Part shown: positions 4,559-25,860 of the stretch, piece after piece | Layout: every line of letters starts with the position of its first letter | Numbering within the stretch: position 1 is the first letter of the stretch | NCBI GenBank assembly: GCA_964493105.1 | Contig: CAZBNI010000001.1 | Coordinates: 1 to 28,366 of the forward strand | Length of the DNA stretch: 28,366 bases | DNA from: an uncultured Gammaproteobacteria bacterium | Lineage (GTDB): Bacteria; Patescibacteriota; Patescibacteriia; UBA10025; JAHIVO01 | Direction of reading: 5' to 3' | Program-made: the position numbers and the translations under genes | The notes under the pieces: generated by a model | The model's database searches: none | What the model was told of the DNA's origin: nothing | What the model saw: the letters and a program-made list of their open reading frames with translations, nothing else

Positions 4559-5677
4559 CTATTTTTGCTCATTGATCCTTGCGAGCTCGGTGACAATAGT
4601 ATCGTTGACGCTCGATCGAGCCATAGATACTGCCTCACGGATCGCATTCATGATTGCTACCCACGAAGAACGCCCATGGGCAATGATTACCGTCCCTTGT
4701 ACCCCTAAAAGTGGTGCTCCACCATGTTCTCGCCAGTCAAAACGACGCTTGAGAAACTTATAAATGGGTCGCAATGTCAGAAATGCAATCAACCACGCAG
4801 GAAAATACGTAAGGAGAAACCACGACGGTTGTGTGACTAAGATTACGAGTGGGGGGATCAGAAGCGTTGATAGACCAAAAACCGCGACGACTTTTTTCTT
4901 CTTCTCAACGATGGAAAGAATCCTCTTCAATGCCGAGTAAATACCCTCAGCAACTTTGAGAATTATATTCCCAATAAAGCCATCACATACGATTACATCG
5001 GTTGTACCACGGGCAATGTCAAAACCCTCAATATACCGAGCATCTGGAATTACCTTCTTGATTATTGCGAGAGCACCTTGTACGAGCTTATTCCCTTTGC
5101 ACTCTTCGTCCCCATTACTGAGGATTCCGATACTAGGATTTTGCTTGCCCAAAATCGCTTGTGCATAGACACGGCCGATAATCGCAAACCGCAGCAAATG
5201 CCGTGGTTTACAGTCTGTTGTTGCACCAGAATCAAGTAAAATACTAAGGTCTTTGAGTGTCGGCATGCAGGTCGCAATTGCTGGTCGCACATACATACCC
5301 GACAATAAGCCTAATTTAGTACAAGCGCTAGTAACCACTGCTCCCGTATTTCCAGGACTGACAAGTGCATCTCCCTTTCCTTGACGCACAAGTTCCATAC
5401 CAACTGCGATCGAAGAATCAGAATCTTCGTTCACAGACTCAGGACTATTCTTCATGCCAATGACACTAACGGCATTCACTATTTCAATCCGATTTTTCAC
5501 CCGTCTATACTTCTCACGTAGTTCATGACTGAACTGCAGGACCGACTTAATGTCAGACTCTTTACCAACAAGCGTAATCCGAAAATCTTTGTCGGGTAAC
5601 TGCAAAAGAGCTTCGATTGCTCCGTGAACAATCGCCTCAGGACCATTTTCCCCCATTACATCTAAAACGATATTCAC
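4559..5677 (-). CDS. plsX: Phosphate acyltransferase PlsX with a hydrophobic insertion
   Basis: Motifs IVLDVMG, DALVSPGNTGA, RPAIA, LLDSGA, DVIVCDGFIGNIILK, HGGAPLLGV, IIAHGRS. GTG start at 5677 follows SD GGAAAGGAGG. Confidence 0.9.
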   Translation of the reverse strand: MNIVLDVMGENGPEAIVHGAIEALLQLPDKDFRITLVGKESDIKSVLQFSHELREKYRRVKNRIEIVNAVSVIGMKNSPESVNEDSDSSIAVGMELVRQGKGDALVSPGNTGAVVTSACTKLGLLSGMYVRPAIATCMPTLKDLSILLDSGATTDCKPRHLLRFAIIGRVYAQAILGKQNPSIGILSNGDEECKGNKLVQGALAIIKKVIPDARYIEGFDIARGTTDVIVCDGFIGNIILKVAEGIYSALKRILSIVEKKKKVVAVFGLSTLLIPPLVILVTQPSWFLLTYFPAWLIAFLTLRPIYKFLKRRFDWREHGGAPLLGVQGTVIIAHGRSSWVAIMNAIREAVSMARSSVNDTIVTELARINEQK

Positions 5678-21086: not shown

Positions 21087-21485
21087 TTACAAAGCTCTGA
21101 TGAGATTGCCGTCCGGATCCAGTTCTACAAAATGCTTCGCCGTTCCGTCACGGTATGCCGAACATTGATTTTGTGGCAATTCATCAACAGTCTCCCGCGG
21201 CTCATGGGCAATATCAGCAACCCAGTCGGGAATTACCTCATTAGAAATACAAGGGCCGTCAGATAAATCTTCCCCTTCCAGAAATTTCGCCCGCCATAAT
21301 TCTTTCGCTTTTGCTACAGCGAGGTCTTTGTCGGCTTTTTCTTTGATTTTTAGACTGGCAGTGCCAGTTACCACCTCAGTGGCAGTAAACGAATTTGAAT
21401 TATCATCTGCTTTCTTTTCCCCACAGCCACTCAAGAAAATCACGGCGCATAAAACAAAAGTGAGTACAAATATTTTTTTAAACAT
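21087..21485 (-). CDS. Lipoprotein of unknown function
   Basis: Signal peptide with lipobox LSGC; compact C-terminal domain GPCISNE...DIAHEPR...NQCSAYRDG...HFVELD with two Cys. Confidence 0.8.
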   Translation of the reverse strand: MFKKIFVLTFVLCAVIFLSGCGEKKADDNSNSFTATEVVTGTASLKIKEKADKDLAVAKAKELWRAKFLEGEDLSDGPCISNEVIPDWVADIAHEPRETVDELPQNQCSAYRDGTAKHFVELDPDGNLIRAL

Positions 21486-21517
21486 AGAATCTCTATTAAC
21501 CTCTCTTAATCCATTTT

Positions 21518-21546
21518 ATTATAATGTTTTTATCGCTAAAAAACAA
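21518..21546 (-). promoter_or_regulatory. sigma70 promoter for the lipoprotein gene
   Basis: TTGTTT-N17-TATAAT. Confidence 0.55.
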
Positions 21547-21621
21547 ATAGGTCAAACACTACCCCCGTACGAAATAAAAATATGGTATGCTAATAACATA
21601 CTCCTTATCATTGATCCCGTC

Positions 21622-23142
21622 ATGGACATAAAAAAACAAATACTCAACATAATCACGAATAGTAAGGTGCACGTACTTCTTCTCCTTGTTATTTCTAGCG
21701 TCCTTCTTTTCCAAAACTTACACAAAGGCAGCCTTGCTGATTTTGACGAAGCTACGTATGCACAAATTTCTCGCACTATCGTTGAAACCGGAAATTGGAC
21801 CGATTTACAATGGATGGGTAGTAATTGGTTTGAAAAACCACCATTGGTTTTTTGGCTGACCGCGCTGAATTACAAATTCTTTGGTGTAAGCACGCTGACC
21901 ACTCGATTGTGGCCAGCTCTTTTTGGAGTCCTGACAATCATTGCCGTATACTATCTTGGACTGACCATGTTCAGGAATAAAACGGTTGGTTTTTTTAGTG
22001 CAGGCATTCTCCTAACCAGTTCCCAGTTTCTCCAAATGTCACGTTTCTTTATGCTCGATGTTCCCGTTGTTTTTTTTATAACAACCACACTATTATTTTA
22101 CTGGCTCGGAAAAACAAAAACACACCACTTTTTTTATCTATCCGCCTGTATGAGTGGCCTTGCCGTTTTAACCAAAGGACTTACCGGACTTATTGGACCT
22201 CTTATCATCATTTTTTTCATATTCTGTACCAAAGAGTATGAAAAAATTTCGTGGCGCACTTTCTCACTTTCATGCCTACTATTCTTCGCCGTTACGGCAC
22301 CGTGGCATGCAATTGAAACCATAAAATTCGGTTCATATTTTTGGGAACAGTTTTTTAATGGACAAACACTCACCATATTGCAAAGCGAACATTCTCTTCA
22401 GAACCTCCCAAAAATGATATATGTAGATACGCTCATATACGGCTTTTATTGGTGGGTGTACCTGTCCGCTGCCGCGATCTTTTATTATTGTGCGCAGTTT
22501 GTTATTAAGAAATCACAACATCTATTATTTCTGCTGATTTGGGTTGCGGTGATTGTTACGATACTCTTCATTACAAAAATTAATATTCCCCAATATATCC
22601 TTCCCATATATCCTGCACTTGCACTGCTCGCTGGATTGTTGCTCAAAGATCTGACAGTTCCTTTTAAAAAAACAAAACTGCTTCCAGTAGGCGCTTTGAT
22701 ATTCATTGTCATCTTCACGCTGAGATTTCATTTCCCAGAGGCTCTGTACTGCAACACAACTTTCTATAATATAAATCAATACATTGACGATGCAACAGTG
22801 CTTGTCCATGAGTCAATCCCATTGCATTCGGGAAAAAATCCCGGACCTCTTTTTTATCTAGGCAATCAGCGTGTAAAACTCGATGAAATTAAAAACAAAT
22901 ATCTCAATCAAAAGGATGCTGCCACACTCTTTGTTATTAAGAAAAAAGATTTCCTTGAGACAACGACATTTAAGGAGGCAACAATATTATTTATGGATCA
23001 AACATATATTTTATTTACTGCTCCTGAAAATTCAGCTATGAGGAAAAACCCGCAATATGCCCCGGCTGAACAAAAATCACCGCTACGGTATTGCTATCCA
23101 TATATTACAATGTGGCAGTATACTACTCCGCTAATCTATTAA
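21622..23142 (+). CDS. GT-C fold glycosyltransferase, ArnT/PMT (GT39/GT83-like) family
   Basis: DFDEATYAQISRTIVETGNW, WFEKPPLVFWL, RLWPALFG, SRFFMLDVP, LAVLTKG, PWH, QYILPIYPALALL. ATG 21622 preferred because the longer ORF-track start overlaps the opposite-strand lipoprotein. Confidence 0.9.
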   Translation: MDIKKQILNIITNSKVHVLLLLVISSVLLFQNLHKGSLADFDEATYAQISRTIVETGNWTDLQWMGSNWFEKPPLVFWLTALNYKFFGVSTLTTRLWPALFGVLTIIAVYYLGLTMFRNKTVGFFSAGILLTSSQFLQMSRFFMLDVPVVFFITTTLLFYWLGKTKTHHFFYLSACMSGLAVLTKGLTGLIGPLIIIFFIFCTKEYEKISWRTFSLSCLLFFAVTAPWHAIETIKFGSYFWEQFFNGQTLTILQSEHSLQNLPKMIYVDTLIYGFYWWVYLSAAAIFYYCAQFVIKKSQHLLFLLIWVAVIVTILFITKINIPQYILPIYPALALLAGLLLKDLTVPFKKTKLLPVGALIFIVIFTLRFHFPEALYCNTTFYNINQYIDDATVLVHESIPLHSGKNPGPLFYLGNQRVKLDEIKNKYLNQKDAATLFVIKKKDFLETTTFKEATILFMDQTYILFTAPENSAMRKNPQYAPAEQKSPLRYCYPYITMWQYTTPLIY

Positions 23143-24414: not shown

Positions 24415-24425
24415 AGAGTTAATCT

Positions 24426-24553
24426 CTTATCTACCCCCGCAAAGCGGGGCTGGAGTTAGCACCTTGCCAATCAGGTCCTGAAACAAGTTCAGGACTCCTT
24501 CGGAGGTTGCTGGAACGTCATCGGGCCAGGACCCTCAGTTCACTCTTGATAAG
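24426..24553 (-). promoter_or_regulatory. SAM-I (S-box) riboswitch upstream of metK
   Basis: CUUAUCAAGAG...GAGGG..UGGCCCGAUGAC...CAGCAACC...AAGGUGCUAACUCC...GAUAAG matches the SAM-I consensus; P1 is CUUAUC/GAUAAG. Confidence 0.95.
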
Positions 24554-24576
24554 GTTGGTTTGTTAAGGTATTTCGC

Positions 24577-24605
24577 AGTATAGCACCTCTGGAAAAAATG
24601 GTCAA
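24577..24605 (-). promoter_or_regulatory. sigma70 promoter for SAM riboswitch-metK
   Basis: TTGACC-N17-TATACT with TGC extended -10. Confidence 0.75.
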
Positions 24606-24635: not shown

Positions 24636-24872
24636 AAAAAAATATGCCGAGCCTACGGGTTATAAGGTCCCGAGGCGAAGCATCCTTAAAGGAGAGAGGA
24701 GAAATGAGGGGAGAAACTTGCTTCTTCCCTCATAGACTTTAAAAAGCCTGTACCTGTCTACACACTATTTCGTTGAATAATGTACACAGGTGGTACAGGC
24801 TTTAAAGAAGAAAACCCTTCTTTGTACAGAGAGGGTCGGGATCCTTCCAAACAATTGCCTGGTCGGATCACC
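24636..24872 (-). ncRNA. Candidate ~235-nt structured noncoding RNA (6S-like or novel)
   Basis: Own promoter immediately upstream, U7 tract at the 3' end, no credible ORF. Perfect 12-bp stem (24743-24754/24792-24803), several further hairpins and a 10-bp long-range stem. Confidence 0.55.
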
Positions 24873-24879
24873 AAAAGTA

Positions 24880-24908
24880 AGTATAGCACGTTTAGCCAAT
24901 AAAATCAA
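24880..24908 (-). promoter_or_regulatory. sigma70 promoter driving the candidate ncRNA
   Basis: TTGATT-N17-TATACT with TGC extended -10; same GTGCTATACT core as the metK promoter. Confidence 0.75.
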
Positions 24909-24992
24909 CCATAAAGTCATCTCAAATTGGGAATAAAAAAGTTAAACACAAAAATCCCTTCAAAAGTATGAAAATCTGACGGTTTCATTAAA

Positions 24993-25421
24993 TCAAAAAT
25001 GGTATTTTGTTTTTCTTTCCCAAACGCACGCTAGAAAGCATGCGCTCGGTTGGTGAAATAAAATGATAATTAACGCCCCCAGCGCATCTTCTCTAAGATG
25101 CGCTGGTTTGTAAATAAATATGATCTGGTATCCTTTGATGCGGTTCCCAGAAAGAACGAAACAAAAATCAATACAAAAAGGCACGAGTGGATCCCCATGC
25201 CTTTTAATTTTATCGGGTATGTATCAATACCCCATGAGTCGTGCGATTGCTGCACCGGTGAGTTCTGGTCCTGCTTGTTCACTTAGCCTAAAGAGTTCGA
25301 CAAACGCGAGTTTGCTGGGACGTGTCTGTATGATATCCAGCGCTGCAAGACACACAAGGTGTGCCAACGACTTTTCAAAAAGAACAAAACACAACATCAT
25401 CAATAATCTCCATCTTCTCAT
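24993..25421 (-). pseudogene. Possible degenerate hypothetical gene with an in-frame TGA
   Basis: ORF-track ORFs 25224-25421 and 24993-25184 share one frame, separated by a single TGA (25224-25226); TTGACA-N16-TATTAT upstream at 25498-25525. Confidence 0.3.
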
Positions 25422-25534
25422 GTATTTTCACTACCATAACGTATCTAAACATGCTCTGTCAAATTTTAAAATACTCTCTTTAAAGAGTTAATACTACATA
25501 ATAGACAAAAAAATATATGTGTCAAGCCCTCAGC

Positions 25535-25830
25535 TCTGAGTCGCTCGGACTCGAAGAGGAGCTTCATTAAATCTTATCCAACTTTAATTACCGCCATTAT
25601 TGAATAATCGTATAGAAAATTGTGGTGATGAGGAGTGGTCCCGATACGCATGTGAGGGATTCGAACCCGCTTACCTCAACGCGTATGCGTGGAGGCGACC
25701 GAAGGGAGTTCGGGTCGAACACGACAAAAATCCAATTTTCAAGATTATGAAACTTTGGCGGCGTCTTCCTGACATTCGTCAGGACATGCTTTTGTTCTAC
25801 TTTGGCGCCTGCCCCGCTGAATATCGGGGG
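25535..25830. repeat. Cluster of short GC-rich palindromes (REP-like)
   Basis: GAGTC-gctcg-GACTC (25538), TCCTGAC-attc-GTCAGGA (25767), CCCCG-ctgaatat-CGGGG (25812); ACTTTGGCG occurs twice (25752, 25798). Confidence 0.5.
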
Positions 25831-25860
25831 ACGAGCGGAAAAGTATTAATAAATTAAAAT

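Follow-up and report, generated by a model that had tools for sequence, protein, structure and literature searches.

A stand-alone gene for a predicted small structured RNA of a new family upstream of the SAM-I riboswitch and metK in a Kerfeldbacteria-like Patescibacterium

Several kinds of bacterial regulatory RNA have been described that offer a comparison for a short, strongly folded transcript. In RsaE/RoxS and RNAIII of Firmicutes, C-rich or UCCC motifs pair with ribosome-binding sites and block translation. Molecular-mimic RNAs titrate a partner instead, as CsrB/RsmZ do for CsrA, and the leaders of ribosomal protein genes mimic rRNA sites. Structured elements may also be arranged in cis and in tandem, as upstream of Bacillus clausii metE, where a SAM-I and an AdoCbl riboswitch follow one another with two terminators. 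New small RNA families are found routinely. The CPR bacteria constitute a large part of bacterial diversity, with tiny genomes and no cultivated members, and in the literature searched we found no paper on small RNAs or 6S RNA of Patescibacteria or Kerfeldbacteria, nor on the non-coding RNAs of CPR bacteria.

In the present study we have analysed a stretch of DNA of 28,366 nucleotides (the window), in which positions 24908..24741 of the minus strand are, as judged from sequence comparison, a stand-alone gene for a small structured non-coding RNA with predicted promoter and terminator. This identity is secure. The RNA is a new family of a familiar kind, the stand-alone bacterial small RNA, and its predicted distribution is so far confined to Kerfeldbacteria-like Patescibacteria. 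The generic features of a stand-alone trans-encoded small RNA are all found as sequence predictions, namely a promoter, an intrinsic terminator, a conserved structure and the lack of a conserved ORF. With trans-encoded small RNAs such as RsaE/RoxS it shares a stand-alone unit of 120-240 nt, a 5' stem-loop that begins at about +2, a final domain formed by the terminator hairpin, pyrimidine-rich stretches and conservation within a narrow clade. Unlike those RNAs, to which it has no sequence or covariance-model similarity, it possesses no conserved single-stranded seed, its most conserved part is a helix (P1), and its terminator hairpin is unusually long (60-135 nt) and partly conserved. The sequence-invariant helices and the GGA-containing or purine-rich internal loops are shared with the mimic RNAs and suggest recognition of a folded site; there is also a possible partial likeness to the 16S rRNA 3' tail, which extends over only 8-16 nt; unlike CsrB/RsmZ and the other mimics, however, the RNA has neither repeated binding modules nor an associated gene. 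Finally, as in the B. clausii metE tandem, a terminator-ended structured element directly precedes, and shares the orientation of, a SAM-I riboswitch with a terminator of its own, whereas here a conserved promoter separates the two elements and the RNA is also found detached from metK, before convergent or unrelated genes.

Locus and gene neighbourhood

The region from pckA to metK is arranged on the minus strand as follows.

27444 to 25861, minus strand: pckA (PEPCK_ATP)
Between pckA and the SAM-I riboswitch, minus strand: about 1.5 kb without long open reading frames
24908..24636, minus strand: small structured RNA gene, including promoter and 3' module
24605..24577, minus strand: separate promoter of the SAM riboswitch, TTGACC-17-TGCTATACT (promoter scan)
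24555..24424, minus strand: SAM-I riboswitch (Rfam scan, 69.3 bits)
24369 to 23209, minus strand: metK

The nearest MetK among species-representative genomes is that of L001, a Patescibacteria MAG, with 79% identity to the protein of the window, and the closer and similar MetK proteins of a large protein collection are named Kerfeldbacteria or Patescibacteria; the MetK of locus L081 is 94% identical. The window therefore comes from a Kerfeldbacteria-like CPR bacterium, in agreement with the CPR origin that the initial annotation had supposed. The conserved order of the neighbourhood among the loci is pckA, small ORF, RNA, metK, 134-aa protein, CutA1, Mur ligase and rpoB. Only metK and the block downstream of it are constant neighbours of the RNA gene, which looks like plain synteny, and a partner protein sought in the gene context of the homologous loci was not indicated beyond this synteny.

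Several other features of the region were observed. The SAM-I riboswitch (24424-24605 including its promoter, minus strand) has a 27-nt insert within its own P3 loop region and a CUCU/AGAG terminator upstream of metK, and in the homologous riboswitch of L001 the insertion is so long that the score falls below the Rfam gathering score. At 24920-25164 of the minus strand there are about 245 bp that are absent from L081, where the terminator of the small ORF directly abuts the RNA promoter; this insert is bordered on either side by TTGATTTT (about 25168 and 24908), in the manner of a target duplication, and holds a perfect 12-bp hairpin at 25079-25106. The small ORF (25224-25421, minus strand), listed as 65 aa but probably shorter, is equipped with a promoter (25462..25433) and a terminator (25205..25176) of its own and belongs to no Pfam family. 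Its C-terminal half (...AIARLMGY) is kept in L081, L001 and L131 and more loosely in L082, and a related small ORF, present in only 5 loci, always sits between pckA and the RNA gene. Just 3' of pckA there is a GC-richer non-coding stretch (25631-25850, minus strand) with a T-arm-like GCGGGUUCGAAUCCC and a ...GGGACCA end, in which no tRNA or tmRNA is detected by ARAGORN (even relaxed) or Rfam; no more than about 60 nt of it are shared with L123, and the stretch is possibly a remnant or a mobile element fragment. On the other side of metK, a gene for a 604-aa PMT-family glycosyltransferase (21328-23142, plus strand) separates metK from the conserved 132-aa gene, which in relatives directly follows metK and is itself followed by CutA1; the window has only a 51-aa ORF for CutA1. 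In L134, the corresponding place between terC and the SAM riboswitch has, at 4575-4772, a similar promoter (TTGATTTT-N-CATATACT) and not the RNA family; it encodes a different predicted structured RNA of about 170 nt (z = -4.1) that contains CACCUCC, has a strong terminator and matches nothing in Rfam. In most of the well-supported genes of the window (pckA, rpoB, rpoC, ftsK and the Mur ligase gene) the upstream sequence is A/T-rich and shows no recognisable Shine-Dalgarno sequence.

Homologues, promoter and structure of the RNA

In total 15 distinct copies of the RNA were found, all in Kerfeldbacteria-like Patescibacteria. Eight of them (the window, L081, L001, L082, L088, L094, L096 and L131) were reached independently of the RNA sequence, through MetK synteny: the regions flanking MetK relatives were searched with a profile and then with a covariance model. 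The seven further distinct copies (L099, L106, L108, L110, L121, L123 and L117/L130) came from a scan of metagenome contigs for a pattern combining the promoter with the first 8 nt of the RNA, which gave 32 loci, 13 of them carrying the RNA; the same scan returned L103, a short contig identical to the window over the RNA stretch. There is one RNA copy per locus as judged by covariance model R1. No copy was found in the fetched flanks of five related metK loci (L084-86, L090/91, L092/93, L133 and L134), and the RNA is therefore dispensable there or located elsewhere.

The promoter scan recovers the promoter of the initial annotation, TTGATT-N17-(TGC)TATACT, at 24908..24880 of the minus strand, with a predicted transcript start at about UGGUGAUCC (24873) that coincides with the start near 24872 proposed there. 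In the seven scanned copies the invariance of the promoter and of UGGUGRUC is circular, because the pattern required both. Among the eight unbiased copies, which were found independently of the promoter, the promoter is always present, with TTGAYT at equal spacing in 8 of 8, and the 5' end varies in two, L088 (GGUGGUCU) and L131 (CGUGAUCC). In all copies TGCTAnAnT is found 5-6 nt upstream of UGGUG, and the positions of promoter and terminator are conserved across the family. The elements of the core transcription unit are listed below.

24903..24908, minus strand: -35 hexamer TTGATT of the RNA's own predicted promoter (promoter scan)
24880..24888, minus strand: extended -10 element TGC-TATACT of the predicted promoter (promoter scan)
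24741..24873, minus strand: conserved core small RNA, 133 nt, comprising P1/P1b, P2, P3 and U5 (covariance model R1, 15 homologous copies)
24838..24872, minus strand: P1 domain, outer helix GG(U)GAUCC/GGAUCCC (RNAalifold consensus)
24862..24847, minus strand: P1b inner helix CCAGGC/GUUUGG with a 4-nt loop (RNAalifold consensus)
24813..24837, minus strand: P2 hairpin, pyrimidine-rich 5' arm GACCCUCUCU, loop GUACAA, purine-rich 3' arm AGAAGGGU
24741..24803, minus strand: P3 long hairpin, predicted intrinsic terminator of the core (inverted repeat; perfect GC-containing base of 12 bp, then UUUUU)

In order to obtain a consensus structure, 11 full copies were aligned with MAFFT, structural information not being used, and analysed with RNAalifold. 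The consensus consists of three hairpins with 44 pairs, 20 of which show compensatory double changes, and such changes are found in every helix, the inner stem enclosed by the GATCC arms among them. Standard pairs are formed in 93.3% of the cells, versus 38-53% when the 3' partners are slid by 1-3 columns, and the 20 pairs with double changes compare with 5-11 after such sliding; none of 500 shuffles reached the observed covariation values. The collection of homologues with covariation, which the initial annotation had put forward as a check, thus shows the structure to be conserved in relatives. Model R1 gives 114 bits (E = 6.6e-26) over 24873..24740 of the minus strand of the window, its best match on the opposite strand, overlapping the core region, reaching 22.6 bits. 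The minimum free energy (MFE) of the core is -55.3 kcal/mol; that of the 240 nt after the promoter is -89.4 kcal/mol (z = -7.5, with 0 of 200 dinucleotide shuffles as good), and this longer fold is a row of hairpins that reproduces the hairpin list of the initial annotation.

The P1 domain is the most sequence-conserved part of the family. Its outer helix contains an invariant bulged U and is followed by a 2x2 purine-purine internal loop, which varies across the copies as GA/AA, AA/GA, GA/GA and similar combinations; the inner helix P1b has 6 bp, is rich in G-U pairs and covaries, columns 18:33 being occupied by C-G, G-C, G-U, U-A or A-U, and an A-U pair of P1 is changed to G-C in L088. In P2, 3 of the 9 pairs are changed on both sides and the polarity of the arms, Y-rich and R-rich, is kept in all copies. 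P3, whose length ranges from 60 to 135 nt across the family, shows compensatory changes in 14 of 22 pairs and is directly followed by a U-tract in every copy. The largest internal loops are the 2x2 loop of P1 and loops of about 4-6 nt in P3. Both the 5' hairpin GAUCC-GA-CCAGGC/GUUUGG-AA-GGAUC and the hairpin ACCCU/AGGGU of the initial annotation (ACCCUCU.../...AGAAGGGU) are present in the window, as is the perfect 12-bp base AAAGCCUGUACC/GGUACAGGCUUU of its central rod; the rod itself turns out to be P3, a long intrinsic terminator with its U-tract.

The single unit of about 235 nt that had been assigned to this transcript could not be maintained. In 13 of the 15 family members the RNA ends at P3 and its U-tract, with nothing homologous downstream, and the conserved transcript is therefore about 133 nt long in the window (24873..24741), with a predicted range of 121-172 nt across the family. 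Two copies, the window and L001, carry in addition a 3' module.

24740..24636, minus strand: lineage-specific 3' module, 105 nt (hairpin, CU-rich single strand, second terminator with U7)
24704..24733, minus strand: hairpin AUGAGGGA...UCCCCUCAU of the 3' module (MFE)
24688..24703, minus strand: CU-rich tract UUCUCCUCUCUCCUUU, predicted single-stranded, anti-Shine-Dalgarno-like (unpaired in MFE and centroid structures)
24636..24686, minus strand: predicted second terminator hairpin (GGAUGCUUCGCCUCGGG...CCCGUAGGCUCGGCAU) with U7 (sequence and MFE)

The hairpin AUGAGGG/CCCUCAU and the U7 run (24642..24636), both reported initially, belong to this part of the window. The hairpin at 24704..24733 is conserved only in L001/L102 and L103. 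At the place aligned to the CU-rich tract L001 has CACUCCUUCUCCUU, and at that of the second terminator it has a hairpin of different sequence with a U-tract. Read-through of P3 would yield an isoform of 238 nt ending at the second terminator, and such a species is possible. In L081 an unrelated palindromic repeat occupies the place of the module; long palindromic repeats (GTCATTGCGAGG...CCTCGC(A/G)ATGAC) were observed directly after the RNA terminator in two relatives, L081 (585-660) and L121 (about 380-270, minus strand).

Known RNA classes, coding potential and the adjacent riboswitch

Rfam scans of the window and six homologous loci, at the gathering threshold and at E<=10, returned the SAM-I riboswitch only, and in the cmscan proposed initially no family matches the RNA stretch at E<=10. 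Weak matches to ylbH, Thr-leader and miRNA families were dismissed, being on the wrong strand or inconsistent between loci. None of the known SAM-binding riboswitch classes (SAM-I to SAM-VI, SMK box, SAM/SAH) matches over 24636-24908. The initial annotation had seen no signature of tmRNA, RNase P, SRP RNA or T-box, and this agrees with the lack of any such Rfam match at E<=10 and with ARAGORN, which finds 0 tRNA/tmRNA genes in the window; the GNRA/AGCA motif of domain IV of SRP RNA is absent by eye. Resemblances noticed by eye to SRP domain IV, a T-box sequence, boxA, a k-turn and RAT were each dismissed for failing a defining feature or conservation, and so was a triple-helix reading of P2 and its linker.

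Of the two identities left by the initial annotation, a divergent CPR 6S RNA or a new class of non-coding RNA, the second stands, on account of covariation, promoter, terminator and the lack of an Rfam match, and the first does not. A divergent 6S RNA would form a rod, made up of closing stem, central bubble and terminal stem, and would sequester the sigma-70 holoenzyme and template pRNA. With 6S RNA (RF00013 and relatives) our transcript has in common a housekeeping-type, predictedly strong promoter, an abundant- and stable-looking nature, a length of the right order and a high helical content, and the search of the 28-kb window yielded no 6S RNA at any other place. However, the 6S covariance models have no match at E<=10 in the window or the six homologous loci, the family consensus is made of three local hairpins with the 5' and 3' ends unpaired, so that there is no closing stem of the ends and no central bubble, and the 3' element is an intrinsic terminator. 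The long-range stem that had been proposed between 24846-24836 and 24673-24664 appears in neither the MFE nor the centroid structure. Imposing it carries a penalty of 13.4 kcal/mol, with a pair probability of about 0 versus 0.98-1.0 for the competing pairs of P1, the helix supported by covariation; moreover 13 of 15 copies lack its 3' partner, and the aligned segment of L001 is not complementary. With no 6S model match and a closing stem both unfavourable and unconserved, the defining features of 6S RNA thus fail, and we give this identity hardly any credence. A tempting but wrong "CPR 6S RNA" annotation is thereby removed.

We also considered whether the locus might not be an RNA gene at all and represent instead a small or leaderless coding gene, a DNA operator (the GATCC...GGATC inverted repeat) or a mobile palindromic repeat. 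Seven copies have an AUG at the predicted start, the region is overlapped by ORFs of 43-51 aa, and palindromic CPR repeats lie nearby in L081 and L121. The compensatory changes in all helices nevertheless speak against these readings, which we regard as extremely unlikely. Read from the 5' end, the frame runs into a stop after 6-9 codons in L121, L130, L110 and L106, bearing out the earlier statement that there is no real ORF, and the differences in helix spacing between copies are not multiples of 3. A mobile palindrome is excluded by the single copy per locus, the fixed syntenic position and the lack of a match in the phage collection searched; the pattern scan of viral contigs gave two matches only, both by chance.

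The location of the RNA raises the question of a function in cis. In 8 of 15 copies the SAM riboswitch and metK follow the RNA immediately and are oriented alike (one of these copies, L123, is truncated ahead of its downstream flank), three more copies are within about 1-1.4 kb upstream, and L110 and L130 have a SAM riboswitch about 0.9-2.2 kb downstream on the same contig. A cis leader or riboswitch in tandem with SAM-I would use P1-P2 as the sensor and P3 as a regulated terminator, read-through feeding metK. In most copies 4-7 bp can form between the 5' UGGUG(AU) and (AU)CACCA in the 5' arm of P3, a short pairing with no covariation, and P2 resembles the CUCU/AGAG terminator of the riboswitch. 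Against such a leader stands the conserved promoter between RNA and riboswitch, which is the riboswitch's own and is retained in L090, a relative that lacks the RNA. In addition, the gene next downstream of the RNA is convergent in L082 and L131, and in L096 and L110 the RNA is followed by other genes that have promoters of their own; a promoter-free 5' UTR before a constant gene is thus not what is found, the downstream genes being different. Cognate duplexes between the RNA and the riboswitch expression platform are barely better than non-cognate ones (averages of -19.1 versus -17.6 kcal/mol), the z-scores of the P2-platform duplexes against shuffles lying between 0 and -3. Taken with this evidence, a cis leader appears improbable. 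An action of P2 in trans on the expression platform was rejected on the same averages, the CUCU/AGAG complementarity being of low complexity.

Mode of action and significance

The anatomy of the gene, with its own promoter and terminator, argues for an independent small RNA in trans. The explanation that we prefer overall, and which we hold to be reasonably probable, is a stand-alone small RNA gene of a new family that would act in trans, and not on the adjacent metK, its folded core perhaps being recognised by a partner. The near-invariant P1 domain is probably the part through which it acts; the mechanism is our best guess. Conservation is concentrated in the paired P1 with its bulged U and purine loop and in the arm polarity of P2, and not in loops or linkers. 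Both strands of P1 are near-constant, as is the polarity of P2, whereas the loops and linkers lack conservation throughout; a protein or ribonucleoprotein partner may therefore recognise the fold of the core, rather than an antisense seed being used, and we tentatively favour such recognition as the better fit.

The main rival to recognition of a folded object, and in our opinion an unlikely one, is a base-pairing small RNA, in which the CU-rich 5' arm of P2 (CCCUCUCU) or the tract of the long isoform (UUCUCCUCUCUCCUU) would block the ribosome-binding sites of mRNAs. The architecture is typical of trans-acting small RNAs, with own promoter, 5' stem-loop and intrinsic terminator, and the unpaired CU-rich tract of the 3' module, located between hairpin and terminator and kept in the window and L001, could pair with purine-rich ribosome-binding sites. 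However, the core family has no conserved single-stranded segment, its CU-rich arm being locked in P2, and the 3' module occurs in only 2 of 15 copies. Most genes of the window offer no recognisable Shine-Dalgarno sequence as a target; within the 28-kb window there is no complementarity of at least 13 nt to the RNA, and the one 12-nt match involves a variable linker and is at chance level.

A riboregulator directed at the ribosome would be another possibility in a lineage poor in Shine-Dalgarno sequences, to which we assign only a small probability. Here the RNA would bind the 3' tail of the 30S subunit, its 5' GGUGAUCC pairing with its exact complement, 16S rRNA 1529-1536 (GGAUCACC, just 5' of the anti-Shine-Dalgarno; the reference is the E. 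coli 16S rRNA, and the loci collected contain no 16S 3' end of this clade). Alternatively, the 3' strand of P1 together with the 5' arm of P2 would act as a decoy for a factor that recognises the tail (e.g. Era, YbeY or bS21), P1 being an internal competitor, that is, an auto-inhibitory mimic. The segment GGAUCCC-GAUCCUCUCUU, formed by these two strands (GGAUCCC-(G)AUCCUCUCUU), resembles the E. coli 16S 3' tail GGAUCACCUCCUUUCU. The bulged U4 is invariant though unpaired in P1 and would pair with A1534, the L088 variant GGUGGUCU still could pair with the tail through two G-U pairs, and the strong Shine-Dalgarno-like strings stand out because the genes of the window mostly lack such sequences. 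Nevertheless, the match is of 8 nt and post hoc, P1 keeps the segment stably paired (pair probabilities of 0.98-1.0), position 2 is a C in L131, and the literature searched holds no precedent, although its queries were not aimed at ribosome pairing. If true, such an RNA would represent a new control of 30S availability or maturation in CPR bacteria with reduced genomes.

Given how routinely small RNA families are found, the discovery is solid but moderate, and its interest lies mainly in the presence of the RNA in CPR bacteria and in its unusually sequence-constrained 5' domain. Covariance model R1 lets annotators label the family. The RNA gene has been kept with its promoter and structure across about 20% MetK divergence in streamlined genomes, and this conservation points to a likely important function of the RNA in these bacteria.
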